From assembly GCA_963755025.1 (NCBI GenBank), contig CAVWIH010000027.1:1-64000 (forward strand): a stretch of DNA of 64,000 nucleotides, given 5' to 3'. A program made the translations under genes and the position numbers. Below the pieces are notes generated by a model. It did not search any database. It was not told the origin of the DNA and worked only from the letters and a program-made list of their open reading frames with translations. This DNA comes from an uncultured Actinomycetes bacterium (GTDB lineage: Bacteria; Actinomycetota; Thermoleophilia; UBA2241). This document shows, in pieces, positions 18,586 through 37,358 of the stretch (its first letter is position 1; each line of letters starts with the position of its first letter).

Positions 18586-20259
18586 TTAGTGTTCGCACGA
18601 AGCGCCTGCGGAGCGGGCGTCGCCGACCGCAGCGGCGGGTACCGGGTCGCCGATGGCGGCGGCGGCGCGGCGCGCAGCCGCGGCGCCTTCACGGATGCAG
18701 TCGCCGATGCCGATGCCGTGCAGGTAGCCGCCGGCGAGCTCGATGCCGGGCAGCTCGCCGACCTCGCGCTCGATCCGCGCGATGAGCTCGCCGTGCCCCA
18801 CGCGGTACTGCGGCATGCCCCGCGGCCAGCGGAAGATGCGGGTGAACAGCGGCTCGGCGCGCAGCCCGATCATGGCCGCGAGCTCGCGGCGCACCAGGGC
18901 GACCAGCTCGTCGTCGGGCAGTTGCACGGCGGTCTCGCGACCGGCGCGGCCGACGAAGGCGCGCACCAGCACACCGTCGTCGGGTGCGCGGCCGGCGAAC
19001 TTGAGCGAGCTGAAGGTGCCGGCCATGATGCCGCGCTCCTCGGCGCGCGGCACGACGAAGCCGAAACCGTGCAGCGGACGCGCCACATCGGCGCGGCGGT
19101 AGGCGAGCGAGACGGTGGCCGTGCTCACGTAGGCGATCGACGCAAGGTCGGCGGCGGCACCGCTGGCCGCGCCGGCAGCCGCGACTGCGGCTGGCGCGTC
19201 GGCGTCGAGGCCGCCCAGCAGCTCGGCCGACGCGAAGGCCGGACCGGCCAGCACGACCGCCGCGACGGCGCGCTCGCTGCCGTCGGCGAGACGCAGCCGG
19301 TAGGCCGCGGAGCCGCCGGCTACCGCCGGCGGCTCCGCGGCCAGCGACGTCACGCTCAGGCCGGCGTGCAGATGGTCGGCCGGCAGGTCGGCGACGACCG
19401 CGTCGGGCAAGTCGGCCAGGCCGGTGCGAAACGAGAGAAAGTACGAGCGCGGCCTGCGCGACGGAGCGGCCGCGCCGGCCGCGCCGGGCCCCGCGACGCC
19501 GGGGGCTGCGGCGGGCGCCGGGGTGGCGCCGGGTGCCCGGGCGCCGGTCGTGCCGGCGCCTGCGGAGCCCGCAGCCGCCGCGGCCGCCGCCCTCGCCGCC
19601 CGCGCCCGGCGACGGCCGATCATGCCCACGATGAGGCTGCGGTGCTCCTGCTCCATGTCGAGGAACAGGGGGAACGTCGCGCGCACGCTCATCTGTTCGG
19701 GGTCGCCCGCGTGCACGCCGGCCACGATCGGCTCGGCGATCTTGGCGAGCGCCTCGGCGCCGAGCCGCCGCCGCACGAAGTCGCCGAGGCTCTCGTCGCG
19801 CCCGGCGGGGCCGCGCGGCAGCAGCAGGTCGAGCCCCATGCGCAGCTTGCCGCGCAGGCTGATCAAGCTCGACAGGGCAAAGGGCGCCAGCTTGGTCGGC
19901 ACCATGAGGATCAGGCCCTCGGGCAGTTCGTGCAGCCGCCCCCGCGAATAGACGAAGCTCTTGCGCACGTCTTCGTTGGAGTCGAGAAAGCGGTCGTACA
20001 CGCCCACCTTGCGGGCGAGCTCCAGGGGCCAGGGTTTCTCGACGATGAACGAGTCGGGCCCGCCCTCGACGACGAACCCGTCGACGCGCTCCGTGCGCAC
20101 CTTGCCGCCAAAGTACCCCTCGCGCTCGTAGAGGACCCAGTCGAAGGCAGGAGCGTCGCCGGCGGCGACCGCCTCGCGGCGCATGGTCTCGAGGGCGTGA
20201 GCCGCGCCCAGCCCGGCCATGCCGCCGCCGACCACGGCGATGACCGGCAGCTCGCTCAC
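18586..20259 (-). CDS. hemY: Proto-/coproporphyrinogen oxidase HemY (HemG/CgoX)
   Basis: VVGGGMAGL, GGKVRT, EGGPDSF, AGVHAGDPEQMS, GFGFVVP, MPQYRVGH, GIGIGDCI. Confidence 0.92.
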   Translation of the reverse strand: MSELPVIAVVGGGMAGLGAAHALETMRREAVAAGDAPAFDWVLYEREGYFGGKVRTERVDGFVVEGGPDSFIVEKPWPLELARKVGVYDRFLDSNEDVRKSFVYSRGRLHELPEGLILMVPTKLAPFALSSLISLRGKLRMGLDLLLPRGPAGRDESLGDFVRRRLGAEALAKIAEPIVAGVHAGDPEQMSVRATFPLFLDMEQEHRSLIVGMIGRRRARAARAAAAAAAGSAGAGTTGARAPGATPAPAAAPGVAGPGAAGAAAPSRRPRSYFLSFRTGLADLPDAVVADLPADHLHAGLSVTSLAAEPPAVAGGSAAYRLRLADGSERAVAAVVLAGPAFASAELLGGLDADAPAAVAAAGAASGAAADLASIAYVSTATVSLAYRRADVARPLHGFGFVVPRAEERGIMAGTFSSLKFAGRAPDDGVLVRAFVGRAGRETAVQLPDDELVALVRRELAAMIGLRAEPLFTRIFRWPRGMPQYRVGHGELIARIEREVGELPGIELAGGYLHGIGIGDCIREGAAAARRAAAAIGDPVPAAAVGDARSAGASCEH

Positions 20260-21162
20260 GGCCGCACGACCGAGCGCAGCACGAGGGCGTCGGCCACGAT
20301 GCCGGCGAGCGCCTCTATGAACGGCGGCCAGTCGTTCAGTCCGGGGCTGCGCAAGAACCGCAGGCCGCAGCCCTCGGCGACCTGCCGCAACTCGACGTCG
20401 AGGTCGTAGAGCGTCTCGACGTGGTCGGCCACAAACCCGAGCGGCACGACCAGCAGGTCCTTCCAGCCGGCGGCGGCGAGCTCGCGCACGGCATCGGCCG
20501 CCTCGGGTTCGAGCCACTCGCCGCCCCGGCGACCCTTGCTCTGGAAGGCCAGCCGCCAGTCGCCGGGCATGAGGACCGGGAGGAGTTGGGCGATCGTCTC
20601 GTGGAGCTGGTCGACGTAGGGGTCGCCGCGCGGCGATGGTGCCGCGCGGCACGTTGTGGGCCGTGAAGAGCACCGCCGACTCCTGGGCGTCGGCTCCAGC
20701 CAGCGACTCGCCGATCCGCCGGCCGAGGGCGGCCACGTAGCGCGGATCGACGTGCCAGCCGTCGAGCAACGGCAGCTCGGCGCGGCCTGCCGAGGCGAGC
20801 GCGGCGCGGTAGGCGCCGGTCGTAAGGCGCGACGAGAAGGGCGACAGCGGCAGCACGACCGTGGCGGGACCGTCGAGCTCGGCCAGGCAGTCGGCGACCG
20901 TCGGCGAGCAATACAGAAAGCCGGGACGCACGCGCACGGCGCCGTCGAGCCGCGCGCTCAGCGCATCCTGCAGGGCGACCGCCTGCCGGCGCGTGATGGC
21001 CGGCAGCGGCGAGCCGCCGCCGATCGTCTCGTAGCGGGCGACCGCGGCGGCCAGCAGGCCGGGCGCCGGAGCGACGCCGGTCAGCGCCGCGACGAATGGC
21101 GCGACGTCGGCAACCGTCTCGGGTCCGCCGAAAGCGAGCAGGGCGACGTCGGCGCCGGGCAC
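20256..21162 (-). CDS. hemH: Ferrochelatase HemH/CpfC (frameshift near 20625)
   Basis: LLAFGGPE, RYETIGGGSPL, LFTAHNVP; C-terminal AFQSKG...WLEP...GFVADHVETLYDLD in the second frame. Confidence 0.9.
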
Positions 21163-21165
21163 GCG

Positions 21166-22317
<1,152 letters not shown>

Positions 22318-22490
22318 GTCGGTCGTCGCTTTCGTCGAAACGGGGCGCTGCAGCTCCCCAGAACGACTCTATTCTAAGTCGGAAGCAACGACAGGAGGCA
22401 GACGGCGAACGCGTGAGCGCTGGCGCGGAGGCGGCGTTCGGTCGCGGAGGCGGCGGTTGGTCGCGGAGGCGGCCGGTCGCTGCGAGTCGC

Positions 22491-22832
22491 TCAGCCGCGC
22501 GGCCGGTAGCCTTCGCCGAGAGCCGCGCGGCGGCAGGTGCGGCACACGGTGACGTAGCGCGCGGTCAGCGGCGAGACCATGGGAAAGCGCCCCGCGTGGC
22601 GGCCGAGCGGCTCGCCGCACAGGTCGCAGCGCGCGTACTCCCGTGCCGCCGCCGCGCCCGTGCTTCGCTTGGCGACCGGCGGCACGGAAAGCGCGGCCTC
22701 GAAGGGCAGCGCGGCTACGTCGGACCCAGCCGGAACGGGCGTGGTGGCGGGATCGGGCGGTGCGCCAAGCCCAGCGGCTGAGGGGACCAAACCGGCGTGG
22801 TATGGCGATTGAGAGGCAGACTTGCGGGCCAT
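22491..22832 (-). CDS. Small hypothetical protein with putative Zn ribbon (CxxC...CxxC)
   Basis: RCDLCGEPL...VTVCRTCRR; AGGAG RBS upstream of the ATG. Confidence 0.55.
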   Translation of the reverse strand: MARKSASQSPYHAGLVPSAAGLGAPPDPATTPVPAGSDVAALPFEAALSVPPVAKRSTGAAAAREYARCDLCGEPLGRHAGRFPMVSPLTARYVTVCRTCRRAALGEGYRPRG

Positions 22833-23040
22833 GTCACACTCCTGTCCGGCGGGGGGCCGTCGCCGCCCGCCTGGGGTGGCGGGGAAGCGGCGGGGGTGTT
22901 CCGAACGGTGAGTCAGAACTACCCGGCGGCCGGGCCCTGCAAACCCTCACGGGGGCAGGGCAAAAGCCGCCCGCTCGTCCGGCGGCGGGGGTGCGCTCGA
23001 CCGTCGTGCGAGCACCCGGGACGGCGCCGGACCCACCCGC

Positions 23041-23106
23041 CTTATCCTTATCCCTGGTTGGATAAATATTCCTTATTGGACAAATAACTGGTCGCTATTC
23101 AAGATG
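23041..23106 (+). promoter_or_regulatory. AT-rich promoter/operator of the hdr-like operon
   Basis: Palindrome TTATCC-N6-GGATAA (23048-23065) and direct repeat TTGGA(T/C)AAATA at 23058 and 23076, in an otherwise very GC-rich window. Confidence 0.6.
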
Positions 23107-23135
23107 ACGTGACCGGCTTGGACGACTGGGGAGCC

Positions 23136-24137
23136 ATGGCGACGACCACACCTGATATCCCGGCGGTGACGGGCGGCGTGCTGCTCTTTCGCAGCTGCCT
23201 GATCTCGACCGAATACCCGGGCTGCGAGGCGGCCACCAAGTGGCTCTTCGAGCGCTTCGGCATCGAGTACGCCGTGCTGCCCGAACAGACCTGCTGCACC
23301 GGCTTGGGCTACTACTCGGAGATCGTGCCGGTGGCCACGTCGGTGGCTCTGGCCGCGCGCAACGCCTGCGTCGCGGTCGAGAGCGGCCACCCCGTGATGA
23401 GCTACCTCTGCTCGACCTGCTACGCCATCAACAAGAAGGCGCGCAACATACTGGCGGTGCCCGAGTACCGCGCCGACACCAACCGCGTGCTCGCCGAGCT
23501 CGATCGCCAGTACACCGACGACGTCGCGGCCACCGTGCGCCACAGCCACACCATGGAGATCCTGTGGAGCGCCCACGAGTCGATCCCCGGTCTCATCAGG
23601 CGGCGGCTCGACGGCATCAAGGTCGCCACCCACCCGGCCTGCCACTACTGCAAGGTCTTCCCCGACGAGGTCGTGGGCGACAGCGAGAACTTCATGATCC
23701 CCGAGGACCTGCTCGAGGCCACCGGGGTCGTCAAGACCGGTCTCTACAACGAAAAGACGGGGCACTGCGGGGCCGGCTTTCGCCAGCGCTTCGTGAACCC
23801 TTCGATCGCCATGGCGGTCACCCGCGAGAAGCTGCGCCGCCTCGCCCAGGAGAAGGTCGACGTGTGCGTCCACATGTGCCCGAACTGCGCCATCCAGTTC
23901 GATCGCCACCACGACATCATCGAGGAGTCGTCGCACGAGACCTACCCCTTCGTGCACCTCCACGTGCAGCAACTCCTGGCTCTCGCCTTGGGAGCCGACC
24001 CCGACAAGGACTGCGGCGTGGCCTCGCACTCCCAGGACATCGAGCCGCTGCTGGCGCGCATCGGCGCGCGCCGCAGGGTCGGCGTGACCCCCGCCGGCGA
24101 CGCGGCCGGCCCGACTCCGGCCGGAGACCACCAGTGA
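23136..24137 (+). CDS. hdrB: Heterodisulfide reductase subunit B-like (two CCG domains)
   Basis: FRSC...YPGCEAAT, TCCTG, ARN, CSTC, HPACH, HCGAG, CPNC, HVQQLLALALG. Confidence 0.88.
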   Translation: MATTTPDIPAVTGGVLLFRSCLISTEYPGCEAATKWLFERFGIEYAVLPEQTCCTGLGYYSEIVPVATSVALAARNACVAVESGHPVMSYLCSTCYAINKKARNILAVPEYRADTNRVLAELDRQYTDDVAATVRHSHTMEILWSAHESIPGLIRRRLDGIKVATHPACHYCKVFPDEVVGDSENFMIPEDLLEATGVVKTGLYNEKTGHCGAGFRQRFVNPSIAMAVTREKLRRLAQEKVDVCVHMCPNCAIQFDRHHDIIEESSHETYPFVHLHVQQLLALALGADPDKDCGVASHSQDIEPLLARIGARRRVGVTPAGDAAGPTPAGDHQ

Positions 24138-27100
24138 GGGCCGGCGTCTTTCTGTGCCGGTGCGGCGGCAACATCTCGGGCGTGCTCGACCTCGAGGACC
24201 TCGCCGCCGGCGTGCGCAGCCTCGACGGCGTGGTCGCCGTCGACGTCAACCAGTTCATGTGCGGCACCGAGGGTCGCGAGATCATCGCGAAGGCGGTCGA
24301 GGACCGCGGCCTCGACCACCTCGTGATCGCCTCATGCTCGCCGCGCTTTCAGGGGCCGACCTTCGAGCGCATCGCCCGCGAGCTGCGCCTCGGCGAGAAC
24401 GCCGTCGCCTTCGCCAACATCCGCGAGGGCTGCTCGTTCATCCACGCCGCCGTTCCGGCGCTGGCCCAGGAGAAGGCCCGCAAGATCGTGCGCGCCGCCG
24501 TAGCCCGCGCCCACTGTCAGTCCGACCTGCCGCGCTCACGCACGTTCCTGCACCGCTCGGCGCTCGTGGTCGGCGGCGGCATCGCCGGCATGACGGCCGC
24601 CGAAGAGCTTGCCGGCGCCGGCATCGAGGTCCACCTGGTCGAGCAGTCGCCGAGCCTGGGCGGCTACATGGCGCGACTCTCCAAGACCTTTCCCACCGAG
24701 GACTGCGCCATGTGCTCACTGGCGCCGCGCCTGACCACCACCGCCCTCGAGTCGCGCGTGCACCTGCACACGCTGACCGAGGTCGGCGAGATCTCGGGCC
24801 CGCCCGGCGAGTTTCGCGTGACGCTGCGCCACAAGCCGCGCTACGTCACCGAGGCCTGCGTGGGCTGCGGCGAGTGCGAGCCCGTGTGCCCGGTGAGCTA
24901 CGGCAACGACTTCGATTTCGGCGTCGCCCAGCGGCGCGCCATCAACCGGCCCTTCGCCAACGCCGTGCCGGCCACGTTCCACGTAGAGCGCAAGGGCTGG
25001 TCGCCCTGTAAGAGCGCCTGCGCCGTGCACACCTCGGCTCAGGGCTACGTCGCCCTGGTCGCCGCCGGGCGCTTCGCCGAGGCCTATCGCGTGGCCGCCG
25101 AGCCCAACCCGTTTCCCAGCGTCTGCGGACGCATCTGCACGCGTCTGTGCGAGACCGCCTGCGCGCGCGGCGCCGTCGACCAGCCGGTCGCCATCGCCGC
25201 CCTCAAGCGCTTCGTGGCCGACGAGATCGGCCCCACGCTGCCGGTAGCGCCGGCCCCGGTCATCCACGACGAGAAGGTCGCCGTGGTGGGCGGCGGGCCG
25301 GCCGGCCTGACCGCCGCCCGCGACCTCGCCGACCTGGGCTACGCCACCACCGTCTTCGAGGCCCAGCCGGTGGCCGGCGGCATGCTGCGCACCGGCATCC
25401 CCGACTACCGCCTGCCGGGCGCCACCATCCAGCGCGAGATCGACCAGATCCTCGCCCGGGGCGTCGAGCTGCGCTTGAACCAGCGCGCCGGCGCCGACTT
25501 CACGGTCGACGGGCTGCTCGCCGACGGCTTCAGCGCCGTCTACCTGGCCACCGGGCTGCAGCGGAGCGCCGCTGTCGAGATCCCCGGCGCCGAGCTCGAC
25601 GGCGTGCAGGGGGCGGTCGAGCTGCTGCGCGCCGTCAACCTCGGCCGACCGGCGGCGGTGGGCGCCAGGGTCGTCGTGATCGGCGGCGGCGACGTCGCCC
25701 TCGACGCCGCCCGCAGCGCCATCCGACTGCAGGTGACCGCCGGGCGCGAGCCCGACGTCACGCTGGTTTACCGGCGCTCCAGGGTCGAGATGCCGGCCAA
25801 CGCAAGCGAGGTCGACGAGGCCAAAGACGAGGGCCTCAAGGTCGAGTTCCTCGTGCAGCCGGTCGCGATCTGCGGCAAGGACGGCGCGGTCGCCGGTCTC
25901 ACGGCCGAGCGCTGCGCGCTCGCCGAGCCCGACGCTTCGGGCCGCCGCCGGCCGCTGCCCATCGCCGGCTCGCGGTTCGAGCTGGCGTGCGACACGGTGA
26001 TCTTCGCCGTCGGCCAGGCCGTCGTGACCGACTTCCTCGACGGCTGCGCCGGCGTGCGCCTCGAGGACGGCCAGGTGAAGACCGACCGCGACACCGGCAT
26101 GACCGACCGCCCCGGCGTCTTCGCCGGCGGCGACGTGGCGGCCACCGGCCTGTTCACCGCCATCGAAGCGGTCGCCGCCGGCCGCCGCGCCGCCGCCGCC
26201 ATCCACAACCACCTGCGCGGCGAGACGCTGCTGCCGGTCTGGCAGCAGGAGCAGGGCGCCGCTCGCCCGACGACCGAGGAGCTCGCCGCCGTCGCCGTGG
26301 GCCAGCGCGTGCCGATGGCGCTGGTCGACGGACTGCGCCGCCGCGCCGACTGGCACGAGATCTCGCCCGGCTACGACGCCGCAGGGGCCGTCGCAGAGGC
26401 CGCGCGCTGTCTGTCGTGCGCCGTCTGCGCCGACTGCGGCTCGTGCGTGCGCGCCTGTCCGTCGGGCGCCGTCGACCTGGACGACCGCGAGTGGCGTGAA
26501 GAGATCTCGGTGGGCGCCGTGATCGTGGCCACCGGCCATCAGGAGTTCGACGCCCGGCGCAAGCCGGCGCTCGGCTTCGGCCGCTTTCGCAACGTCCTGA
26601 CCCAGAGCCAGCTGGCCCGCCTGCTGGCCGCGGCCGGACCGACCGAGGGCGAGGTTCGCCGGCCTTCCGACGGCGCCGCGCCGCGCAGGATCTTCATGCT
26701 GCAGTGCGTGGGTTCGCGCGACTGCCAGAGCAGCGGCAACGAGCATTGCTCGGCCGTCTGCTGCCTGTTCGCCACCCTGCACGCCTCGCTGCTCAAACAG
26801 CACTACCCCGACGCCGAGATCACCATCGCCTACACGGACATGCGCACCCCGGGCAAGGGGCACGAGGAGTACTACCGTCTCGTGCAGAGCCGCGGCGTGC
26901 GCTACGTGCGCGGCCGCATCGCCGAGCTCGTCGAAGAACCCGACGAGCGCCTGCGCGTGCGCCTCGAGGACACAGCGACCGGCGCCAAGCACGAGGAGCT
27001 GTTCGACCTGGTCGTGCTCTCGGCGGGCCTCGAGGCCTCGGACGGCACCCGGCAGATCGCCCGGGTGGCCGGCCTGCAGACGGGCGCGGCCGGCTTCATC

Positions 27101-27487
27101 AAGGAGTACCACCCCAAGCTCGCCCCCGTCGACACGCAGCGCGCCGGCATGTTCGTGTGCGGCACCGCGCAGGGGCCCAAGAACATCCCCGACTCGATCG
27201 CCCAGGCCAAGGCGGCGGCGGCGCGCGCGGTCGCCATGCTGTCCAGCGGCTTCGTGCTCACCCCGGCCCAGGTGGCTTCGTCGGACACGACCGTCTGCAT
27301 AGGCTGCGGCGTCTGCGAAAGCTCGTGTCCGCAGGGCGCGGTGGCGCTCTCGGGCGCGGTCGCGCACGCCGTGGTCGACGCCAACGTCTGCCGCGGCTGC
27401 GGCATCTGCGCCGCCGACTGCCCCTCGGGCGCCATGCAGCTGGGCGGCTTCAGCGACGCCGAGATCCTCGCCGAGGTGACGGTGTGA
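24134..27487 (+). CDS. hdrA: HdrA-like flavoprotein with inserted GltD/NfnB-like NAD(P)H oxidoreductase module (HdrL-type)
   Basis: VFLCRCG, SCSPR, NIREGC, GGGIAG, TFPTEDCAMC; insert SPCKSAC...CGRICTRLCETAC, GGGPAG, GGGDVA, YRRS, EAARCLSC; HdrA C-half QCVGSRD, CSAVCC, GPK; terminal 2x[4Fe-4S]. Confidence 0.9.
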   Translation: MRAGVFLCRCGGNISGVLDLEDLAAGVRSLDGVVAVDVNQFMCGTEGREIIAKAVEDRGLDHLVIASCSPRFQGPTFERIARELRLGENAVAFANIREGCSFIHAAVPALAQEKARKIVRAAVARAHCQSDLPRSRTFLHRSALVVGGGIAGMTAAEELAGAGIEVHLVEQSPSLGGYMARLSKTFPTEDCAMCSLAPRLTTTALESRVHLHTLTEVGEISGPPGEFRVTLRHKPRYVTEACVGCGECEPVCPVSYGNDFDFGVAQRRAINRPFANAVPATFHVERKGWSPCKSACAVHTSAQGYVALVAAGRFAEAYRVAAEPNPFPSVCGRICTRLCETACARGAVDQPVAIAALKRFVADEIGPTLPVAPAPVIHDEKVAVVGGGPAGLTAARDLADLGYATTVFEAQPVAGGMLRTGIPDYRLPGATIQREIDQILARGVELRLNQRAGADFTVDGLLADGFSAVYLATGLQRSAAVEIPGAELDGVQGAVELLRAVNLGRPAAVGARVVVIGGGDVALDAARSAIRLQVTAGREPDVTLVYRRSRVEMPANASEVDEAKDEGLKVEFLVQPVAICGKDGAVAGLTAERCALAEPDASGRRRPLPIAGSRFELACDTVIFAVGQAVVTDFLDGCAGVRLEDGQVKTDRDTGMTDRPGVFAGGDVAATGLFTAIEAVAAGRRAAAAIHNHLRGETLLPVWQQEQGAARPTTEELAAVAVGQRVPMALVDGLRRRADWHEISPGYDAAGAVAEAARCLSCAVCADCGSCVRACPSGAVDLDDREWREEISVGAVIVATGHQEFDARRKPALGFGRFRNVLTQSQLARLLAAAGPTEGEVRRPSDGAAPRRIFMLQCVGSRDCQSSGNEHCSAVCCLFATLHASLLKQHYPDAEITIAYTDMRTPGKGHEEYYRLVQSRGVRYVRGRIAELVEEPDERLRVRLEDTATGAKHEELFDLVVLSAGLEASDGTRQIARVAGLQTGAAGFIKEYHPKLAPVDTQRAGMFVCGTAQGPKNIPDSIAQAKAAAARAVAMLSSGFVLTPAQVASSDTTVCIGCGVCESSCPQGAVALSGAVAHAVVDANVCRGCGICAADCPSGAMQLGGFSDAEILAEVTV

Positions 27488-28071
27488 GTGTGGTGGCCGG
27501 GGTCGCCCGGGCGCTGCCGGGAGTGCACGCCGCGCCGGAGGCAAGCGAAGTGCCGAGCGCGGCCGCCGCGGAGGATGCGGCCCCGCGGGGTGCAGCCGTG
27601 CCGGGTGCCGCCGCGCCGGGTGCCGCCGCGCCGGGTGCCGCCGCCCTGGGTGCCGCCGCGCCGGGTGCGGAGCCGCGCCGCACCGTCGTCGCCTTCTGCT
27701 GTCGCGAGTGCGCTTACGCCGCGGCCGACGCCAGCGCCAACGCGCGCACGTCGCTGCCGCCGACCGTGCGCCTGGTGCTGCTGCCTTGCACGGGCCGGGT
27801 CTCGCCGCTGCACCTGCTCGAGGCGCTGGCCGGCGACGCCGACGGCGTCATGGTGGCGGGCTGCCTCGAGGGCCAGTGCCACTATCGCGAGGGCAACTTC
27901 AACGCCCTCGACCGCGTGCTGTTCGTGCAGCGCGTGCTGGCCTCGGTGGGCGTCGAACCCGAGCGCGCGCGCATGTTCACCATGAGCGCCGGCGAGCCGC
28001 CCAGGTTCGCGGCCGCCGTGCGCGAGATGGACCGCGCGATCGCCGCCCTGCCGCCCCTGCCGAGGTCGTGA
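27484..28071 (+). CDS. mvhD: MvhD/FlpD-like [2Fe-2S] subunit with PGAAA-repeat N-terminus
   Basis: AFCCRECAYAAAD, PCTGRV, ADGVMVAGCLEGQCHYREGN, SAGE. Confidence 0.9.
   Translation: MSVVAGVARALPGVHAAPEASEVPSAAAAEDAAPRGAAVPGAAAPGAAAPGAAALGAAAPGAEPRRTVVAFCCRECAYAAADASANARTSLPPTVRLVLLPCTGRVSPLHLLEALAGDADGVMVAGCLEGQCHYREGNFNALDRVLFVQRVLASVGVEPERARMFTMSAGEPPRFAAAVREMDRAIAALPPLPRS
27601..27670 (+). repeat. 15-bp tandem repeat (CCGGGTGCCGCCGCG) x~4.5 encoding PGAAA
   Basis: Directly visible tandem units. Confidence 0.9.
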
Positions 28072-28073
28072 CG

Positions 28074-28490
28074 ATGCCGCTGAGCCACCGCGGCCGCGAG
28101 GTACTGGAGCGTCTGCCGCAGGCCGCCTTTGCCGGCGACAGCGCTCTGGGCTGCGAGATCGTGCGCCACGACGAGCTCTGCGTGGGCTGCGGCAGGTGCG
28201 CCGCCGCCTGCCCGAGCGGGGCCAACACCCAGAGCGACCGTTTCGACGTGAACCAGCTTCTCGACGCCCCCCAGGGCAGCCGGCGCGGCGCCCTGGGCGC
28301 CGCCTTGCGGCGCCTGCAGCGCCGCGCCCCCGACGGCCCCGTGGCCGTGCCCGCGCGCGTCACGACCTATCGCACGATCGACTACGACGCCGCCGTCTGC
28401 CTGGGCTGCGGCGCCTGCGCCCGCGCCTGCCCGGCGCAGGCCATCGAGGCGCTGGCCCCGCGGGTCGCGCCGGTCGAGGTCGCGACGTGA
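28074..28490 (+). CDS. 2x[4Fe-4S] ferredoxin-like protein
   Basis: CVGCGRCAAACP and CLGCGACARACP separated by a ~50-aa insert. Confidence 0.85.
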   Translation: MPLSHRGREVLERLPQAAFAGDSALGCEIVRHDELCVGCGRCAAACPSGANTQSDRFDVNQLLDAPQGSRRGALGAALRRLQRRAPDGPVAVPARVTTYRTIDYDAAVCLGCGACARACPAQAIEALAPRVAPVEVAT

Positions 28491-31069
28491 GCGGCGTCGA
28501 GGCCGCCACCGGCGCCACTGTGAGCGGCGCCGCCGCCGCGAGCGACGCGAACCTCGCCACGACGATCGCGCACGCCGCGAGCGGCGCCCGGCCGCTCGTG
28601 CTGCTCTGCGAGTGCGCCGGCACCATGGCCAACATCGACTTCGCGGCGCTCGAGACGCGCCTCGCCGCCCACGCCGACGTGCGGCGCGGCGCCCACTGGT
28701 GTGCGCGCGACGGCCAGGCGCGCCTGCTCGAGCTCCTCGAGGGCGACCCGCGGCGGCCGGTCTTCGCCGGCTGCTCGCGCGACTTCTCCGACCGCCGCTT
28801 CCAGCGCCTCGCGGCGCGCGGCCTGCGCCTCGAGACGGCCGACATCCGCGAGGGCTGCTCGTGGGTGCACGACGGCGACACGGCGGTCGTCACCGACAAG
28901 GCGGCCCGCATAGTCCTGGCGGCGATGGCCTACCCGAGCGCTTCGGCCGATACGCTGGCCCGTACGCACAGGATCGACTCGGTCCTGGTGATCGGCGGCG
29001 GCGTGGCGGGCACACAGGCCGCCGTCGAGCTCGCCCAGATGGGTCACCGCGTCGACATGGTCGAGAGGCGCCCGTTCCTGGGCGGCCGCGCGGCCCGCAT
29101 AGGCACAGTGTTCCCGACCAACGACTGCGGCCAGTGCCTGCCGACCACCGACGCCCAGGCGGGCACGCGCAAGTGCTTTCACCGCAACGTCGCCATCGAC
29201 GACCCCAGCCTGCACATCTGGCGGCGCACCACCGTCGAGGCGGTCACCGGGCGCCCCGGCGAGTTCGAGGTCGCCCTCAAGCGCCTGCCGAACATCGTCA
29301 CCGCCGAGTGCCTCAACTGCAGCACCTGCGAGACCGTCTGCCCGGAGCCGTCGAGCGACGGCGCGCACAAGGCGATCTTCGCCGAGTTCTACGACGGCCG
29401 CGTGGTGCGCACCGTCGACCTCGACACGTGCACCTTCTGCGGCGCCTGCGCCAAGGACTGCCCCGTGCAGGCCATCGACTTCAGCCAGTCTCCGGAGCGC
29501 ACCACCGTCAAGGCCGGGGCGGTGCTCACCGCCGTGGGCTGCGACCCTTCGCCGGCGGCGCTCATCGACCACCTCGGCTACGGCCGCGACAACGTGGTCA
29601 CGCAGACCGAGTTCGCCGAGATGATGGACGACTGGACCGCCATGGCGTCGGTGGGCCGCACGCCGGCTCGCGACGTCGTGATGGTGCAGTGCGCCGGCTC
29701 GCGCGACCGCCGCCGCCTGCCCTACTGCTCGCGCCTCTGCTGCATGATCGCCCTCAAGCACGCGACGCGGCTCAAGCGCCTCTTTCCCGAGATGAAGGTG
29801 ACGATCTGCTACCTCGAGCTGCGCACGGCCGGCATCGGCTACGAGAACTGGTACCTCGAGGCGCGGCGCGCCGGCGTCGAGTTCCTGCGCGGCACGCCGC
29901 CCAGCGTGCAGTTCGACGAGCACGGCCGACCGGTGATCGAGGTCGAAGACATGACGGTGACCGAGAAGAAGACGTTGCGCCCCGACCTGGTCGTGCTCTC
30001 GCACGGCATGGTACCGGCGAAGGAGGTCGCGAGCCTGGCCGAGGTGCTGGGCATCGAGAGGAGCGAGGACGGCTTCGTCGAGATCCTCGACCGCAAGAAC
30101 CGCGCCACCGAGACGACCCGCGAGGGCATCTTCGTGTGCGGCTCGGCGGCCGGTCCCAAGGCGCTCGTCGAGTGCAACACCGAGGCCTCGGCGGTGGCGG
30201 CCGAGATCCACAACTTCCTGGGCTCGGCCGGCCGCCGCATGTCGCCCGCCTCGACCGTGCGCGCGGCGGCCTGCGTGGGCTGCGACGTGTGCGAGTCGAT
30301 GTGCCCCTTCGGCGCCATCAGCCGCGTCGAGCGCCCGGCCGGGGCGCCGCGCCCGGCCGAGGTCGACGGCGACGGCAGACTGGCCGTCATCGACTCGGAG
30401 ACCTGCCGTGCCTGCGGCATCTGCGCCGCCAACTGCCCGGAGATGGCGATCGAGCATCACCTCTCCGACGACGACCTCACCGGCCGCCTGCGCCTGCTGG
30501 CGGGCGACGTCGAACGACCGGTGATCGGCTTCTACTGCAAGGAGTGCGCCGGCGCGGCGATCGCCCTGAGCGGGCTGCGCCACGACGCCTACCCCGCCAA
30601 CGTCTGCCTGATCGAGCTGCCCTGCCTGGGCCGGGTGAGCGCCCTGCATATCGTCGAGGCGGCCCGCCTGGGCGCGGCCGGCGTCTTTTTGGCCGGCTGC
30701 GCCGAGGGCCGCTGCCAGTTTCGCGCAGGCGACACGAGCGCCGCCGCCCAGGCGGCGCTCGCCGACGAGTTGCTCACCGCCGCGGGGCTGGCCATGCCGC
30801 TCGAGCTCTGGCACCTGTGCGCCGTCGATCGCGGCACCGTCGGGCGCCGTATCCGCCTGTTCTGCGCACGCGCCCAGGGCGACGAGGCCGCCGCCGCGAT
30901 GCTCGTCTCCGAGACCCACCTCGTGGACCGGGCCACCGGCGCCGGCGACACCGCGGGCGACGCGCCGCGCGCACACGGCGCCGGTGACGAGGACTCTCCG
31001 CTGGGCGGGCGCCGCTCGCGCGGCGTCAGGGCGTCGCTTGCCGAAGGGGGTTGCCGTGACTGTCGCTGA
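28487..31069 (+). CDS. hdrA: HdrA-MvhD fusion protein
   Basis: LCECAG, DIREGCSWVH, GGGVAG, FPTNDCGQC, internal ferredoxin, QCAGSRD...YCSRLCCMIALK, GPK, second ferredoxin, C-terminal MvhD (FYCKEC, PCLGRV, GCAEGRCQF). Confidence 0.9.
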   Translation: MSGVEAATGATVSGAAAASDANLATTIAHAASGARPLVLLCECAGTMANIDFAALETRLAAHADVRRGAHWCARDGQARLLELLEGDPRRPVFAGCSRDFSDRRFQRLAARGLRLETADIREGCSWVHDGDTAVVTDKAARIVLAAMAYPSASADTLARTHRIDSVLVIGGGVAGTQAAVELAQMGHRVDMVERRPFLGGRAARIGTVFPTNDCGQCLPTTDAQAGTRKCFHRNVAIDDPSLHIWRRTTVEAVTGRPGEFEVALKRLPNIVTAECLNCSTCETVCPEPSSDGAHKAIFAEFYDGRVVRTVDLDTCTFCGACAKDCPVQAIDFSQSPERTTVKAGAVLTAVGCDPSPAALIDHLGYGRDNVVTQTEFAEMMDDWTAMASVGRTPARDVVMVQCAGSRDRRRLPYCSRLCCMIALKHATRLKRLFPEMKVTICYLELRTAGIGYENWYLEARRAGVEFLRGTPPSVQFDEHGRPVIEVEDMTVTEKKTLRPDLVVLSHGMVPAKEVASLAEVLGIERSEDGFVEILDRKNRATETTREGIFVCGSAAGPKALVECNTEASAVAAEIHNFLGSAGRRMSPASTVRAAACVGCDVCESMCPFGAISRVERPAGAPRPAEVDGDGRLAVIDSETCRACGICAANCPEMAIEHHLSDDDLTGRLRLLAGDVERPVIGFYCKECAGAAIALSGLRHDAYPANVCLIELPCLGRVSALHIVEAARLGAAGVFLAGCAEGRCQFRAGDTSAAAQAALADELLTAAGLAMPLELWHLCAVDRGTVGRRIRLFCARAQGDEAAAAMLVSETHLVDRATGAGDTAGDAPRAHGAGDEDSPLGGRRSRGVRASLAEGGCRDCR

Positions 31070-32330
31070 ACCGGTGCGGGGCGCGGTCGCCGCCATCGCC
31101 GCCGACTACCGCATCTGCTACCAGTGCGGCCAGTGCACCGCCGCCTGCCCGAGCGGCGCCGACCTGCGGTCGGGGCCACGGCGCGTCATGCGCCTGCTGC
31201 TCGCCGAGCAGGCCGAGCAGCTCCTCGCCTGCGAGGACATCTGGCGCTGCACCGGCTGCGGCGCCTGCAGCGCCGCCTGCCCCATGGACCTTGACGTGGC
31301 CGAGGCGCTGGCCCGGGTGCGCGCGCTGGAGCGCGCGCACGGCGGCCAGCGCTGCCCCGAGCGCGGCGCCGCCTTGGTGGCCGCGCGGCGGCTCGCCGAG
31401 CACGACACGATCGACTCGCTGGCGTTCGGCACGGCCATGGCCGGCCGCGGCTACGTGCCGAGCGACCTCGTCGGCGCCGCGGGCGCCGCGGCGCGCCTGC
31501 TCCAGGGCCGGCTGCGGCGGACCGCGCATCCTCAGGCAGCCGGGCCCGCGACGGCCACGGCGGCGGCCGCGTCGCACGCGGCGGCCGCTTCCGAGTCGCT
31601 CGCCACAGGTTCGGCGGCGGGGTTCGCGGCGGCGGCTGCGGGGTTCGCGGCGGCGGCTGCGCCGCCGCTCCCCTTCTACCCGGGTTGCGCCCTCACCCAG
31701 GACGCGGCGGCCCACGCCCTCACGCGCGCCGCGGCCGCCGGCCTTGGTCTGGAGCTCAGCGAGACAAGCGGCGCGCCCTGCTGCGGGCACCCCAGCCGCG
31801 GCGCGGCCGCGCCGGGCGCGATGGGCGACGAGACGCTCGTCACCGCCTGTCCGGCCTGCGACCGGAGCCTGCGCGAGGCCGGCATCCCGACGACGCCCCT
31901 CTGGGAGGCGCTCGTCGACCGCACGTTGCGCGGCGGTCGCGACCTGCGAGCGGCCGGCGCGGCCTTCGTGCCCTACGTCGGTTGCCTCGCCGAGCGCGAC
32001 CGCGCCCTCGACACGCTGGCCGGCGCGGCCGCCCTTGCCCAAGTCGACTGCCTGACCTCGTACCCGGCGCTGCACAGCGGCTGCTGCGGCGCCCTGGGCG
32101 GCATGTACCGCGGCGAGACGCAGGCGGTGCGGCGGTTGCTCGACTACGCCGCCGAACGCGACGCCGCCGTGGTCACCACCTGCCTGCTATGCCGCGACAA
32201 CCTGCGTTCGTCCGCCCGCCGGCGCCGGCTGCCGGTCCAGGTCCAGTTCTGGCCCGAGTTCTTCAGCGCCGCCGGCCCCGCCGCCGACGCCGGACCCACC
32301 AACTTCACCGATGGAGGCGCCCATGACTGA
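31056..32330 (+). CDS. HdrC-HdrB (HdrD-like) fusion, compact/divergent
   Basis: CYQCGQCTAACP, IWRCTGCGACSAACP; FYPGC, CCGH, CPAC, YVGC, CCGA, CLLC. Confidence 0.8.
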   Translation: MTVAEPVRGAVAAIAADYRICYQCGQCTAACPSGADLRSGPRRVMRLLLAEQAEQLLACEDIWRCTGCGACSAACPMDLDVAEALARVRALERAHGGQRCPERGAALVAARRLAEHDTIDSLAFGTAMAGRGYVPSDLVGAAGAAARLLQGRLRRTAHPQAAGPATATAAAASHAAAASESLATGSAAGFAAAAAGFAAAAAPPLPFYPGCALTQDAAAHALTRAAAAGLGLELSETSGAPCCGHPSRGAAAPGAMGDETLVTACPACDRSLREAGIPTTPLWEALVDRTLRGGRDLRAAGAAFVPYVGCLAERDRALDTLAGAAALAQVDCLTSYPALHSGCCGALGGMYRGETQAVRRLLDYAAERDAAVVTTCLLCRDNLRSSARRRRLPVQVQFWPEFFSAAGPAADAGPTNFTDGGAHD

Positions 32331-33045
32331 GCGCGACGAGCGCCCGACCGCCGTGCCCGACGCCGGGGCCGGCGTGCCCAGCGCCGAGGCCGCCGTGCCC
32401 GTACGGGTGAACCCTTACGCCGTGATCGCCCCCGGCGAGTTCCACCGGCGGCCCGAGGCCCGCCTCGACCTGGTCGAGCGCATCGTGAACGACCCCCGCA
32501 TGCACGACCACAAAGAGGGCTTTCTCTCCTGCCTGCAGTGCGGCGTGTGCACCTCGGGCTGCCCGGCGGCGCGCTTTGCCGACTATTCGCCGCGCCAGGT
32601 GGCGCGGCGCGCCTACGAGGGCGACCCCTCGCTGCTCGAAGACGACTCGGTGTGGTTCTGCTTCTACTGCTACACCTGCCAGAGCCGCTGTCCGCGCAAG
32701 AACAGCGTGGCGGTGATCAACCAGGTGATCCGCTCCATGCAGGTCGAGAGCGGCTACGGCATCAAGCACGTCGAGATGTTCGCGGCCTGGGGCGAGCAGT
32801 TCTACGACAAGGGCATGGGCGGCACGCCGCACGTCTTCTTCAGCGACATCGCCGAGGCTTGGGGGCCGAAGTGGCAGGCCTTCATCGCCGGCCGCGACGC
32901 GCTGCGCGAGGAGCTCGGCGTGGGCGACATGTACCCGTCGGCGGCGACCGTGGCCGAGGTACGCGCCGTCATGAGGGCGACCGGCTTCAAGGCGCGCCTC
33001 GAGAGCCTGGGCGCCTGGGGCGGCCGGCGGCCCGACGAGGATTGA
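32323..33045 (+). CDS. hdrC: Heterodisulfide reductase subunit C-like
   Basis: CLQCGVCTSGCP and WFCFYCYTCQSRCP; GGAGG RBS. Confidence 0.88.
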   Translation: MTERDERPTAVPDAGAGVPSAEAAVPVRVNPYAVIAPGEFHRRPEARLDLVERIVNDPRMHDHKEGFLSCLQCGVCTSGCPAARFADYSPRQVARRAYEGDPSLLEDDSVWFCFYCYTCQSRCPRKNSVAVINQVIRSMQVESGYGIKHVEMFAAWGEQFYDKGMGGTPHVFFSDIAEAWGPKWQAFIAGRDALREELGVGDMYPSAATVAEVRAVMRATGFKARLESLGAWGGRRPDED

Positions 33046-33273
33046 CCCCACCGTCGGTTGCGTGCCGCGGATGGCCGTGTGGAGCGCATGACCTTTCCTG
33101 AAGAGGCCTCACGTCGCACGCTTTGGCCTTTTCCAAGTGGCTGACTCACCCCGAGACGCTCGGATGCCAATCCACGCCACAGGGCGATCCTTGGGGGTAA
33201 GGCGATGCGCAGCCTGTTCCACGTCGTCGGCACGAGTGCGATGCTCCGCCTGTCGTTCGGTGTCGTGATGGGG
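33046..33273 (-). ncRNA. Putative structured ncRNA (long irregular hairpin; 6S/Ms1-like shape), unassigned
   Basis: Nested inverted repeats spanning the whole intergenic region, several closed by G-U pairs on the minus strand; no credible ORF. Confidence 0.45.
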
Positions 33274-33402
33274 TGTGGTCGGTACCCAGCCGCCCGCGAC
33301 CAGTCGGCCGCGCCATAGGCGCGCGCCTGCTAGAATCTGTACAGCCCTGCCGGTGCGGTGGCGCCGGCGCCTGTCTCGCCGACGCTCAAGGACGGCTGCC
33401 CG

Positions 33403-34314
33403 ATGACCGACTTCTCCGACTCCCAGCAGGAGCTTCGCGACCTGGCCGCCGCGCGCGACGCCATCATCCTGGCGCACAACTACCAGCGCCCCGAAGTGCA
33501 GGACGCGGCCGACCTGGTGGGCGACTCGCTGGAGCTCGCCCGCAAGGCGGCGGCCACCGACGCCGCGGTGATCCTCTTCTGCGGCGTGCACTTCATGGCT
33601 GAGACGGCCAAGATCCTCTCGCCCGCCAAGACCGTGCTCATGCCCGATCCCCACGCCGGCTGCCCGATGGCCGACATGGTGACGGTCGAAGGCCTGCGCG
33701 CCTTGAAGGCGCAGCACCCCGACGCCGCCGTGGTCGCCTACGTCAACACGAGCGCCGAGATCAAGGCCGAGGTCGACGTCTGCTGCACCAGCGCCAACGC
33801 CCCCGAGATCGTGGCCCGCATCCCCGCCGAGCAGCCCATCATCTTCGTGCCCGACCGCAACCTGGGCGACTGGGTCGCCGGACGCACCGGGCGCACGAAC
33901 ATGATCATGTGGCAAGGCTACTGCCCCGTGCACGAGCAGATGACCGCCGACGAGGTGAGCGCCGCCCTCGCCGCACACCCAGGGGCCGAGCTCATGGCGC
34001 ACCCCGAGTGCGGTCGCGAGGTGCGCGCCCTGGCCACGGTGATCACGAGCACCTCGGGCATGCTGCGCTACCCGGCCACGAGCGCCGCCCGCGTGTTCGT
34101 GGTGGCCACCGAGACGGGCCTGCTGCACCGCCTGCGCGGACTCTACCCCGACCGTGAGTTCCTGCCGGCCGCGCGCGGCGCGATCTGCCCCAACATGAAG
34201 CGCACCACCCTCGACAAGGCGATCGCCGCCTTGGACGAGGGCCTGAACGAGATCGTGGTGCCGCCGCGCATCGCCGAACGCGCCCTCGCGTCGGTCGAGC
34301 GCATGATGGCCTGA
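33403..34314 (+). CDS. nadA: Quinolinate synthase
   Basis: ILAHNYQ, GDSLEL, FCGVHFMAETAKIL, GCPMAD, YVNTSA, CTSANA, CPVH, AHPEC, ICPNMK. Confidence 0.96.
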   Translation: MTDFSDSQQELRDLAAARDAIILAHNYQRPEVQDAADLVGDSLELARKAAATDAAVILFCGVHFMAETAKILSPAKTVLMPDPHAGCPMADMVTVEGLRALKAQHPDAAVVAYVNTSAEIKAEVDVCCTSANAPEIVARIPAEQPIIFVPDRNLGDWVAGRTGRTNMIMWQGYCPVHEQMTADEVSAALAAHPGAELMAHPECGREVRALATVITSTSGMLRYPATSAARVFVVATETGLLHRLRGLYPDREFLPAARGAICPNMKRTTLDKAIAALDEGLNEIVVPPRIAERALASVERMMA

Positions 34315-34386
34315 GCGCCCGTCCGGGCGCGTGAGTTCCCCGGTCTAGCAGCGCCGCGCGCCGGGAAAGCCTACCGGCAGAGCATC

Positions 34387-34845
34387 ATGCCACCTGGCAA
34401 GCACAACTCCAGCGACAAGCCCGACCGCGGCAACAGCAGCGACCGCGCGCGCGACTCCGCCCGAGACCCCACGCGCGACTCCGCCCGAGACCCCGGCCGC
34501 GAACGCCCGCACGATCCCGCCCGCGAACGCCCGCACGATCCCGCCCGCGACCCGGACGCCGGCGAGCACTACGAAGTCGTGACGGTCGAGCACCTGCTGG
34601 CGCCGGGCGCCCCCAGCCTCCCCACGCCGCCTGCCGGCCACGCCCGGTACGCCTACGTGCTGGAGGGTCAGGTGACCGCGCGGATCGGCGCCGAGACGCT
34701 GATCGCCGGACCCGGCAGCATCGTCTCGCTGCCCGCGAGCTTCCGTCACTCGCTCGCCTGCGCCGGCGACACGACGGCCCGCGTGCTCGTCGTGCACGTG
34801 CGCGAGACGGAGCGGGAAGATCCGGCGGAGCGCCGCGCCGCGTAG
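34387..34845 (+). CDS. Cupin-domain protein with repetitive N-terminus
   Basis: YAYVLEGQVTARIG...GPGSIVSLPASFRHSL; RDSARDP and RERPHDPA repeats. Confidence 0.6.
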   Translation: MPPGKHNSSDKPDRGNSSDRARDSARDPTRDSARDPGRERPHDPARERPHDPARDPDAGEHYEVVTVEHLLAPGAPSLPTPPAGHARYAYVLEGQVTARIGAETLIAGPGSIVSLPASFRHSLACAGDTTARVLVVHVRETEREDPAERRAA

Positions 34846-36547: not shown

Positions 36548-37358
36548 CTAGCTCAGCACGTCCTTGCGCCCGAACACGGCGACCGCGGCGAGCAGCGCCA
36601 CGCCTACCGTCGCCCCGTAGCTCTCGAGCGCCTGCCTGACAGGTTGCCAGTAGATCGGATAACGGAACAGGTTGACGAAGGCGAGGCGGTAGCTCGAATA
36701 CGTGTAAGGCTTCAGGAAGTCGAACACGCTGAAGGCGTTCAGGATGGTCAGCACGGTGAAGACGGCGATGGCGATGATCGCCGCCGTGAGGCTCGAGTCG
36801 GTGAGCGTCGAGATGAACAGGGCGATGGTCAGCGAGCAGACCGCGCCCGCGACCACCAGCAGGTAGGCCACGCCGATCAAGGCCGAGCGCGTGCGATGTG
36901 CCGATCGTCGTGCCCGACAGGGTGACCAGCGGGCGCAGGCCGAAGGCCGCGGCGCCCGCCGCCAGCGCCACCACGGCCACCAGGGCGGCCCCGGCCAGCG
37001 CGTAGAGCACGGCCACGGCCCACTTGGTGAGGAGCACGCCCGTGCGGCTCACTGGACGCGACAGCCAGGTCTTGAGCGTGCCCGTCTCGGCCTCGCTGGC
37101 CACCGACGAGGCGCCGCCCATAGCGGCGACGATGGGCAGCAGGAACGAAGCCAGCGCGATCAGCGCCGAGAGCATCACGAGCAAGCCGTTCTGGGCGACG
37201 TGCGCCACGAACGGCGGCTCGCCGGGGTCCTGCGGGCGCGGCGTCTGCAGCGCCCCCGCGGCGACCACGATGAGCGGCACGGCCACGAGCCCCGTCCAGC
37301 CCAGGTAGGTGCGCTTCTGGTGGGCGACCTTGATGGCCTCGAGGCGAAGCGATGTCAT
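36548..37358 (-). CDS. ABC-2 type permease (frameshift near 36880)
   Basis: VASEAETGTLKTWLSRPVSR...TKW; C-terminal FGRKDVLS; paralog of the next gene. Confidence 0.8.

Follow-up and report, generated by a model that had tools for sequence, protein, structure and literature searches.

The name HdrL was introduced in 2009 for a fusion of the heterodisulfide reductase (Hdr) subunit HdrA with GltD in Desulfobacterium autotrophicum HRM2 (Strittmatter et al., PMC2702500). In locus VIII of this bacterium, as described in the legend to Fig. 4 of that paper, hdrL and hdrA stand in tandem and are accompanied by an fdhB-like iron-sulfur (FeS) gene, by hdrD2 right after hdrA4, and by orthologues of hdrB and hdrC. 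The portions of the paper at hand state that mvhD occurs with every hdrA or hdrL except hdrA4, propose NADH as the electron donor and contain no biochemical test (PMC2702500). In Syntrophobacter fumaroxidans, the genes Sfum_0819-0824 encode HdrABC, a 4Fe-4S protein, MvhD and HdrL, and according to the excerpted text of Sedano-Nunez et al. (2018, PMC5947623) these proteins were detected in proteomes with sulfate present; a set of this kind is therefore expressed. Here we describe a related seven-gene locus at positions 23136-33045 of a 64-kb stretch of DNA (64,000 nucleotides, referred to below as the window, to which all positions refer) from contig CAVWIH010000027.1, our contig C27, of an uncultured bacterium of the Thermoleophilia (assembly GCA_963755025.1; 3.37 Mb on 39 contigs, 84% complete). 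The seven genes supply a full parts list with its cofactor-binding residues, are translationally coupled and are conserved across one family of Thermoleophilia. That they encode an Hdr complex of the HdrL type is nearly certain, and as a whole explanation we find it fairly probable that they constitute a single operon whose products make up a soluble heterodisulfide-reductase-like complex of this type in the cytoplasm.

When compared by its legend description (PMC2702500), locus VIII of D. autotrophicum has the same parts list as the operon. It differs in that HdrA4 is without MvhD, whereas here an MvhD is fused to the second HdrA, and in that its host is a sulfate reducer with DsrC, whereas here only a TusE-like homologue with a single cysteine was found. 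The S. fumaroxidans set, as outlined in the available part of its source, likewise combines Hdr parts, an FeS protein, MvhD and HdrL without a hydrogenase catalytic subunit, but it comprises six genes, has neither the HdrCB fusion nor a second MvhD, and its proposed acceptor is DsrC. An initial annotation, made from the sequence alone, had stated that no characterised system with this architecture was known. This holds in the sense that none has been characterised biochemically, but the parts list itself is already in print in the consulted portions of both papers (PMC2702500, PMC5947623). The architecture is not unprecedented and is not a new kind of system; the differences from the published sets are the MvhD fused to the second HdrA, the histidine-bearing HdrB, the host phylum and the fact that no two-cysteine DsrC was found. 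Our literature search found no paper on this operon in Thermoleophilia. Clusters of the HdrL type have been known from genomes since 2009, but none is known to have been purified, and the search, mostly by titles and abstracts, found no HdrL complex that had been studied biochemically or structurally.

At 73% G+C the raw lists of open reading frames (ORFs) are crowded, and genes were called from the ORF list, start-codon mapping and a codon-usage caller trained on the genome's own long ORFs. All three agreed on exactly seven plus-strand genes within 23136-33045, in the order hdrB, hdrL, mvhD, ferredoxin, hdrA:mvhD, hdrC:hdrB and hdrC (G1 to G7). The first four junctions are GTGA start/stop overlaps, G5 and G6 overlap by 14 nt or, with a G6 start at 31074, are separated by 4 nt, and the overlap between G6 and G7 is 20 nt. 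The gene content, order and tight coupling that had been noted initially were correct for every gene item when checked against the ORFs, Pfam, NCBIfam and the junctions. No promoter-like or terminator-like sites were detected on the plus strand inside the operon, in a scan that was uninformative overall, with no promoter-like site at all and a single terminator-like one, on the minus strand. Rfam gave nothing at E 0.1 or better in the region 21500-34500. The window has 56 called genes, and the 48 outside the operon other than an 88-aa call at 37042-37308 were scanned with Pfam. None of these 48 belongs to the hydrogenase, formate dehydrogenase, Flx, Apr/Qmo or Dsr families, which bears out the earlier remark that the usual partner modules are absent beside the operon; nor was any sulfur-carrier, lipoate-binding or DsrE/TusA family found among them.

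The system is recognised by the product of the second gene (G2, 24134-27487, plus strand). G2 is a complete HdrA, with an N-terminal domain, an FAD domain and inserted and C-terminal ferredoxin domains; it matches the HdrA model NF040770 with E 2.5e-212 (707 bits, the equivalog cut-off being 1100) and the HdrA structure 9sfi_A in two stretches (E 1.9e-165). Its inserted ferredoxin domain is split by an NADPH:FAD module of the GltD/NfnB/StnC type (residues 283-781, 24980-26476; PRK12771, E 4.7e-144). This module carries GGGPAG of the FAD fold (25289-25306), GGGDVA (residues 517-522, 25682-25699), YRRS (residues 546-549, 25769-25780) and eight cysteines for two [4Fe-4S] clusters. Thus, both features by which Strittmatter et al. 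(2009) defined HdrL, an HdrA core and a GltD/NfnB module, are present in one polypeptide, and mvhD also lies directly downstream as in their description, G3 overlapping G2 by 4 nt.

Among solved structures, the best match of the insert was 9bov_A (E 1.5e-111); it also matched NfnA of NfnABC (9n5u_A, E 2e-106), StnC (8oh5_C, E 2.1e-90), NfnB of T. maritima (4ylf_B, E 3.8e-88) and, scoring after 4ylf_B, NfnL of P. furiosus (5jca_L), the last four aligning over ~410-480 residues. StnC and NfnA outscored NfnB. In the NfnB, StnC and NfnA chains, GGGDVA aligns with GGGNTA or GAGNTA and YRRS with YRRT, and stretches of this type presumably contact the nucleotide and its 2'-phosphate. Because the closest solved relatives of the insert are NADPH-binding modules, we read it as NADPH-binding as well, and NADPH is a likely substrate of the complex. 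The suggestion in the initial annotation of a pyridine-nucleotide module with motifs pointing to NADP(H) agrees with the alignment of GGGDVA and YRRS to NADPH-binding NfnB, StnC and NfnA. The C-x2-C segment follows the domain in G2 and StnC, whereas it is N-terminal in NfnB; moreover, the module of G2 sits in an HdrA and that of StnC and NfnA in a NuoG/FdhF-like scaffold, and the operon is without an NfnA or HydBC-type partner. According to the part of PMC10482914 available, the GltD-like FAD of StnC is non-bifurcating and only feeds electrons from NADPH into FeS clusters. We considered whether Arg201 of NfnB could mark a bifurcating flavin and rejected this, as the arginine occurs in G2 and likewise in StnC, which does not bifurcate; the same portion of the source states that the residue is present in both NfnB and StnC and that its geometry, not its presence, separates the bifurcating from the non-bifurcating state (PMC10482914). 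Since the residue is conserved in NfnB, StnC and G2, sequence cannot settle the flavin type of the insert, and the simpler reading is that the insert serves as an NADPH input/output unit while the HdrA flavin is the bifurcating site.

The second HdrA is encoded by G5 (28487-31069, plus strand). It matches NF040770 as HdrA2 with E 2.4e-138 (its residues 38-769 spanning positions 4-740 of the 777 in the model) and 5odc_A with E 1e-89, and carries a fused MvhD (FlpD) domain at residues 679-769 (~30521-30856); it is a complete HdrA but lies further from the methanogen HdrA than G2 does. Both HdrA proteins align with the whole core of the solved bifurcating HdrA (5odc_A, 9sfi_A, 8rvu_a) and keep the N-terminal cysteines, the FAD-domain cluster, both ferredoxin domains and the motif PTxDCxxC, whose second cysteine corresponds, by count on the alignment, to Cys197 of 5odc_A.

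The remaining genes, also on the plus strand, provide the partners of the two HdrA. G1 (23136-24137, or from 23109) is an HdrB with two CCG domains (Pfam CCG, E 4.9e-16; NF041780, E 2.6e-97, 325.8 bits against a cut-off of 450) that aligns end to end with HdrB 5odc_B. Its second CCG motif reads H210-C211-G, with histidine at the position of Cys193 of 5odc_B; His210 is kept in 61/62 orthologues, and Cys172, an extra cysteine three residues past the first ligand, in 61/61. Two complete CCG motifs with ten cysteines are found in G6 and not in G1. G6 (31056-32330, or from 31074) is a soluble, HdrD-like protein in which an HdrC-type dicluster part with two [4Fe-4S] motifs is joined by an Ala-rich linker to a CCG part with two compact CCG motifs. 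Although its Pfam CCG match is borderline (20.5 bits against a cut-off of 20.6), all 44-45 orthologues aligned at these positions retain the ten cysteines, which lie in two C...CCG...CxxC motifs. A structural model of G6 built from 25 orthologues (mean predicted local distance difference test, pLDDT, 77.4; predicted template modelling score, pTM, 0.71) had as its best PDB matches in Foldseek HdrB 5odc_B (E 3.3e-5), LutA, EtfD of M. smegmatis and HdrC, the EtfD match spanning both halves and that of HdrC the N-terminal part. The HdrB-like half of G6, as predicted from its sequence, is confirmed by the conserved cysteines and by this model. G7 (32311-33045) is an HdrC with two [4Fe-4S] clusters (NF041890, E 1.9e-59, 200.5 bits against a cut-off of 270), and its eight cysteines are present in 44/44 orthologues.

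G3 (27484-28071) is the [2Fe-2S] adaptor MvhD (Pfam FlpD, E 2.4e-40, residues 68-189), with Cys73, 76, 102, 127 and 132 kept in 58/58 orthologues. Its N-terminal ~65 residues (27484-27690) form an Ala/Pro-rich repeat (AAPGAAAPG...) that is little conserved among orthologues, and one contig of a DNA run has a 15-nt insertion behind 27632, within this repeat. G4 (28068-28490) encodes a 2x[4Fe-4S] ferredoxin of 140 aa from the Pfam Fer4 families, with two CxxCxxCxxxCP motifs ~60 residues apart whose cysteines are kept in 56-57 of 57 orthologues. Taken over all seven proteins, every FeS-ligating cysteine is kept across 44-65 orthologues. We also modelled the complex of the MvhD core of G3 (residues 68-195) with G4 in three runs, with 3 controls. 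The median score was 0.37 (runs 0.34, 0.51 and 0.37) and that of the best control 0.02; the runs agreed in at least 96% of contacts, with a partner pLDDT of at least 61. The mark applied is reached by 116/157 solved complexes and 2/215 mismatched pairs, and scores of up to 0.60 that pass it come from just 18/157 solved complexes and from both passing mismatches, these counts holding roughly for G3-G4, for which our own alignments were the input. The model is a weak hint that the G4 ferredoxin may dock on MvhD G3.

The locus is conserved well beyond the single genome. A pattern scan with one genome per species gave 66 related loci with HdrL 64-88% identical, in which all seven genes are colinear on one strand wherever the locus reaches far enough (42/42), and the genes present are colinear in the 24/24 shorter ones. 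The carriers are records of metagenome-assembled genomes (MAGs) titled Thermoleophilia, Actinomycetota, Actinomycetes or Gaiellaceae, plus one titled Deltaproteobacteria, with palsa/peat, fen, soil and anaerobic reactors as sources; the actinobacterial host that had been suspected from the sequence is in keeping with these titles. For the record titled Deltaproteobacteria (L057), a search at family level recovered the genomes that carry the Thermoleophilia loci L061, L029 and L014, so that its title is at odds with the genome grouping, and a spread to other phyla by way of L057 was rejected because its genome lies in this Thermoleophilia MAG family. Among 24 genomes of the same family as the host, 13 have an uninterrupted full-length match at 67-88% identity, 6 have it in pieces and 5 show paralogue-level matches only. 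A sample of 300 Actinomycetota genomes, none other from the host family, contained a full-length HdrL in only one other family, f21 (5/20 genomes), at 40-41% identity in four genomes, the fifth matching residues 141-1038 only. No relatives of G5 above 36% identity were present outside the host family in this sample, and in our searches within Actinomycetota the operon was seen in one family only. The f21 genomes have 42% G+C and 1.6-2.0 Mb, and an f21 locus (L088:4035-12408, genome G186), whose complete HdrL is 40% identical and covers residues 1-1115, has the order hdrC-hdrB-hdrL-mvhD plus three Flx-like genes, for an FeS protein, a Fer4_22 protein and an FAD/NAD protein with a DHODB-type FeS domain, without a second HdrA.

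Compared with the better-known Hdr systems, the operon shares with the methanogen MvhADG-HdrABC complexes (5ODC, 8RVU, 9SFI) the HdrA domain plan, the HdrC diclusters, the double CCG fold of HdrB and the MvhD adaptor. Unlike them, it comes with no [NiFe] hydrogenase found in the 84%-complete genome and no FdhAB in the window, has an NADPH module in the ferredoxin arm, two unlike HdrA and HCG in HdrB, and scores under the equivalog cut-offs. In anaerobic methanotrophic archaea (ANME), as the consulted portion of Chadwick et al. (2022, PMC9012536) describes, HdrA9-11 of ANME-1 carry a ~500-aa NfnB-type insert in the inserted ferredoxin domain, and tandem or fused HdrA pairs occur. The likeness extends to the type and place of the insert, several HdrA per cluster, HdrD-like genes and the idea of a heterodimer, but in the portion seen the paired ANME HdrA are complementary (N-terminal domain versus Cys197), whereas G2 and G5 each have both. 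FlxA, FlxB and FlxC of FlxABCD-HdrABC are not in the operon, HydB/AsrA-like and HydG/AsrB-like genes being located on contig C16 instead. The metF and metV genes of MetFV-HdrABC-MvhD are likewise outside it, and the genome's matches to methylenetetrahydrofolate reductase (MTHFR) lie in a locus on contig C20 only. NfnAB differs in that no NfnA-like gene is found in the operon, and sHdr in that its HdrA is short and without ferredoxin domains, whereas both HdrA of the operon are full length and no sulfur-carrier or lipoate-binding genes occur among the Pfam-scanned genes of the window.

Altogether the genome contains four HdrA-based systems, and in three of them a partner module can be recognised (MetF, a sulfur carrier, Flx), whereas the window operon has none except its own NADPH insert. 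On contig C20 (C20:98229-106443) the order is HdrL without the N-terminal domain, HdrA, MvhD, a 227-aa gene, MetF, HdrC-like and HdrB-like, and since the genome's only MTHFR matches lie inside this locus, it looks like a methylenetetrahydrofolate reductase cluster of the MetFV-Hdr type built on an HdrL/HdrA pair. The C20 HdrL match shifts frame near C20:104278-104333. On contig C14 (C14:256062-262646) an HdrL of 907 aa, with PTLDCASC kept, precedes an HdrA of 579 aa, followed by small genes, an HdrC-like stretch and a DsrE2-like sulfur carrier, and an ArsR-type regulator lies upstream; selenocysteine in this HdrL was considered and rejected, the flagged TGA being its stop codon. The C16 locus (C16:692-7656) has hdrC-hdrB-hdrA-mvhD, a 292-aa gene and the HydB/AsrA-like and HydG/AsrB-like genes, and its arrangement is Flx-Hdr-like. 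In both the C20 and C14 loci, HdrL starts at about residue 140 of G2 and keeps PTxDCxxC, and the next HdrA has the N-terminal domain and lacks the motif. Relatives have open frames of ~1500 aa at matches to HdrL residues ~130-1038, which are long enough for a fused HdrL-HdrA. The complementary pairs of C20 and C14 and these long frames indicate that HdrL:HdrA pairing is recurrent in the lineage; applied to G2 and G5 this would be an analogy, not a demonstration.

Biochemical work has demonstrated HdrA-based bifurcation for the electron donors H2, formate and F420H2. A paper from 2026 states, in the part at hand, that the HdrA enzyme family uses neither NAD(H) nor NADP(H) (PMC13689815). Judging from the domains and ligands conserved in the seven proteins, we favour, with reasonable but far from full confidence, an NADPH-fed bifurcating or confurcating ferredoxin:disulfide oxidoreductase based on the HdrA flavin, with the thiol substrate left unspecified; bifurcation to ferredoxin and a disulfide is plausible. 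NADPH would be oxidised at the FAD of the GltD/NfnB-like module of HdrL, acting as a plain input/output unit as in StnC, and single electrons would pass by way of the module's pair of [4Fe-4S] clusters and the ferredoxin-domain clusters of the HdrA core to the HdrA-type FAD, where bifurcation would take place. On the downhill branch, the HdrC-type clusters of G7, or those in the N-terminal half of G6, would carry one electron to the non-cubane CCG clusters, in G1 or in the C-terminal half of G6, where a disulfide would be reduced. On the uphill branch, the other electron would leave by the C-terminal ferredoxin domain and an MvhD, either G3 or the unit fused to G5, for the G4 ferredoxin and then soluble ferredoxin. 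Overall, the complex would catalyse the reversible reaction 2 NADPH + ferredoxin(ox) + RS-SR' = 2 NADP+ + ferredoxin(red) + RSH + R'SH. The two HdrA would probably reside in one particle, each with its own MvhD and CCG module, and the subunits would fall into a methanogen-like set (G1, G2, G3, G7) and a divergent set (G4, G5, G6).

Several observations weigh against this reading, some of which concern the pairing of the two HdrA. According to the consulted portion of PMC9012536, Cys197 is the ligand that one HdrA gives to the N-terminal cluster of its partner, and the complementary loss of the N-terminal domain versus Cys197 is read as a sign of an HdrA heterodimer. We applied this complementarity as a test to G2 and G5, and it is absent there and present in the paralogues only; because the N-terminal domain and the Cys197 equivalent occur in G2 as well as in G5, nothing forces a heterodimer, and family f21 has a complete HdrL without a second HdrA. 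The heterodimer put forward in the initial annotation is therefore not upheld as such: we give an HdrL/HdrA heterodimer about even odds, and each HdrA could equally form a homodimer. Two separate co-expressed homodimeric complexes, an NADPH-fed (HdrL-MvhD-HdrB-HdrC)2 and (HdrA:MvhD-HdrCB fusion-ferredoxin)2, acting in series or on two different disulfides, would account for the completeness of both HdrA, for the retained PTxDCxxC cysteine, which ligates the partner's N-terminal cluster, and for the solitary HdrL of f21. Moreover, G1, G2 and G7 are far closer to the methanogen HdrB, HdrA and HdrC than G5 and G6 are, and the E-values of G2 and G5 against HdrA (1.9e-165 versus 1e-89) together with the weak CCG match of G6 suggest that the two sets are of different origin. 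However, G4-G5-G6 is nested between the mvhD and hdrC of the other set in an order kept in 42/42 loci, no free-standing G4-G5-G6 cassette was seen in the 300-genome sample (G5 at most 36% identical outside the family), and the paralogous HdrL/HdrA pairs are complementary, with frames in relatives long enough for a fused form, so that we regard two homodimers as rather unlikely. Less likely again is an obligately asymmetric particle, in which an HdrL/HdrA heterodimer would wire the NADPH module across the interface to the flavin of the other protomer and the two CCG modules (His-bearing HdrB with HdrC; HdrCB fusion) would act on two sulfur substrates.

The sHdr systems have two unlike CCG modules, HdrC1B1 and HdrC2B2. 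The operon also has two unlike CCG modules, the genome encodes a haem-copper oxidase, and a separate HdrL/HdrA locus lies beside a DsrE2-like sulfur carrier, all of which would suit an sHdr-like oxidative direction, with a thiol, persulfide or protein-bound sulfur oxidised at CCG and electrons passed to NADP+, with or without ferredoxin. We consider this improbable, as both HdrA are full-length, bear ferredoxin domains and are associated with MvhD, whereas the short sHdrA has ~350 aa; the match of 6tjr_A is confined to residues 791-1035 in G2 and 350-573 in G5, and the 48 Pfam-scanned window genes include no sulfur-carrier, lipoate-binding or DsrE/TusA family. It would be more surprising still if the complex were a non-bifurcating NADPH:disulfide (or NADPH:ferredoxin) oxidoreductase, with the second HdrA, the MvhDs and the ferredoxin as wiring or remnants: in both HdrA, in both MvhD and in G4 all ligands of the clusters are retained across 44-65 orthologues at 45-90% identity, and both HdrA align over their full length with solved bifurcating HdrA, even though a GltD-type module can be a simple NADPH dehydrogenase, as in StnC (PMC10482914, in the portion at hand), and no low-potential partner enzyme is encoded nearby.

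Further points count against the bifurcating NADPH:ferredoxin:disulfide oxidoreductase that we favour. All NCBIfam scores lie under the curated equivalog cut-offs, so that the operon proteins are relatives of the methanogen enzymes and do not belong to those equivalogs, and in G1 the second CCG motif has histidine in place of cysteine. The pass of the G3-G4 model may merely reflect the likeness of MvhD and FeS proteins to solved Fdh/Mvh-Hdr complexes. Pfam on the window genes turned up no candidate for a substrate, either within the operon or next to it. In the rest of the genome, where the initial annotation had proposed to look for partners and substrates, the contigs, which make up an 84%-complete genome, gave no match to the [NiFe] hydrogenase large subunit (PF00374) or to CdhC/acetyl-CoA synthase, MTHFR matches were confined to the C20 Hdr locus, and MshC and MshD were not found above cut-off. 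The DsrC family has one match, at C26:30170-30467, split over two frames and apparently frameshifted; it ends in ...GLPNPKTCTV, with a single C-terminal cysteine, looks TusE-like and was for this reason rejected as a DsrC substrate. This match lies where a called gene of 439 aa ends, and a 488-aa gene with an N-terminal cysteine motif is located upstream of it. The genome also has six matches to molybdopterin oxidoreductases on three contigs and one to haem-copper oxidase subunit I, the latter being unusual company for oxygen-sensitive bifurcating enzymes. At the same time, ferredoxin-linked metabolism is present in the host, since the N-domain of 2-oxoacid:ferredoxin oxidoreductases (POR_N) has four matches.

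Evidence at the RNA level was sought in assembled contigs of a wetland metatranscriptome, which were matched to 22300-33400 in 30 bins. Altogether 287 contigs matched (31 at 99% identity or more, 61 at 95-99% and 195 at 90-95%) and covered all 30 bins, with a depth of 1.3 in the bin upstream of G1 and of 46-63 over G1. These contigs are a hint of expression and nothing more: they are short and mostly from relatives, and demonstrate neither a transcript nor a single message, which likewise counts against the proposed operon.

Upstream of the operon, on the opposite strand, lie hemE and a ferrochelatase/HemY-type ORF, and nadA is located downstream. In the relatives, hemE/hemY are also found upstream and nadA downstream at variable distance, and there is no recurrent eighth gene. 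The ferrochelatase/HemY ORF (18586-21162, minus strand; 858 aa) has a ferrochelatase domain at residues 6-177 and a HemY-type amine-oxidase domain at 315-832; the codon-usage caller splits it into 557 + 104 aa, and it represents a fusion or a frame problem. An ORF of 113 aa with four cysteines (22491-22832, minus strand) was considered as a partner of the operon and rejected, as its position tracks hemE instead of hdrB: it is 30-220 nt upstream of hemE in 39/39 loci with both, even where 1.3-4.6 kb separates it from hdrB. Its ~50 C-terminal residues (CxxC, ~25 residues, CRTCRRAALxEGYRP) are kept in 42/56 related loci with at least 900 nt upstream of hdrB, and it matches no Pfam family at E 1e-5 or better.

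The operon represents a compact, self-contained HdrL cluster across a family of uncultured Thermoleophilia and is a reasonable target for heterologous expression. If the coupling of NADPH, ferredoxin and a disulfide is true, it would explain how these bacteria balance ferredoxin and NADPH without a hydrogenase, and it would raise the question of which thiol they use. If even the obligately asymmetric particle were true, a hydrogenase-less, oxidase-bearing peat actinobacterium could make low-potential ferredoxin directly from NADPH, and the complex would be the first pyridine-nucleotide-driven member of HdrA bifurcation with two disulfide sites.

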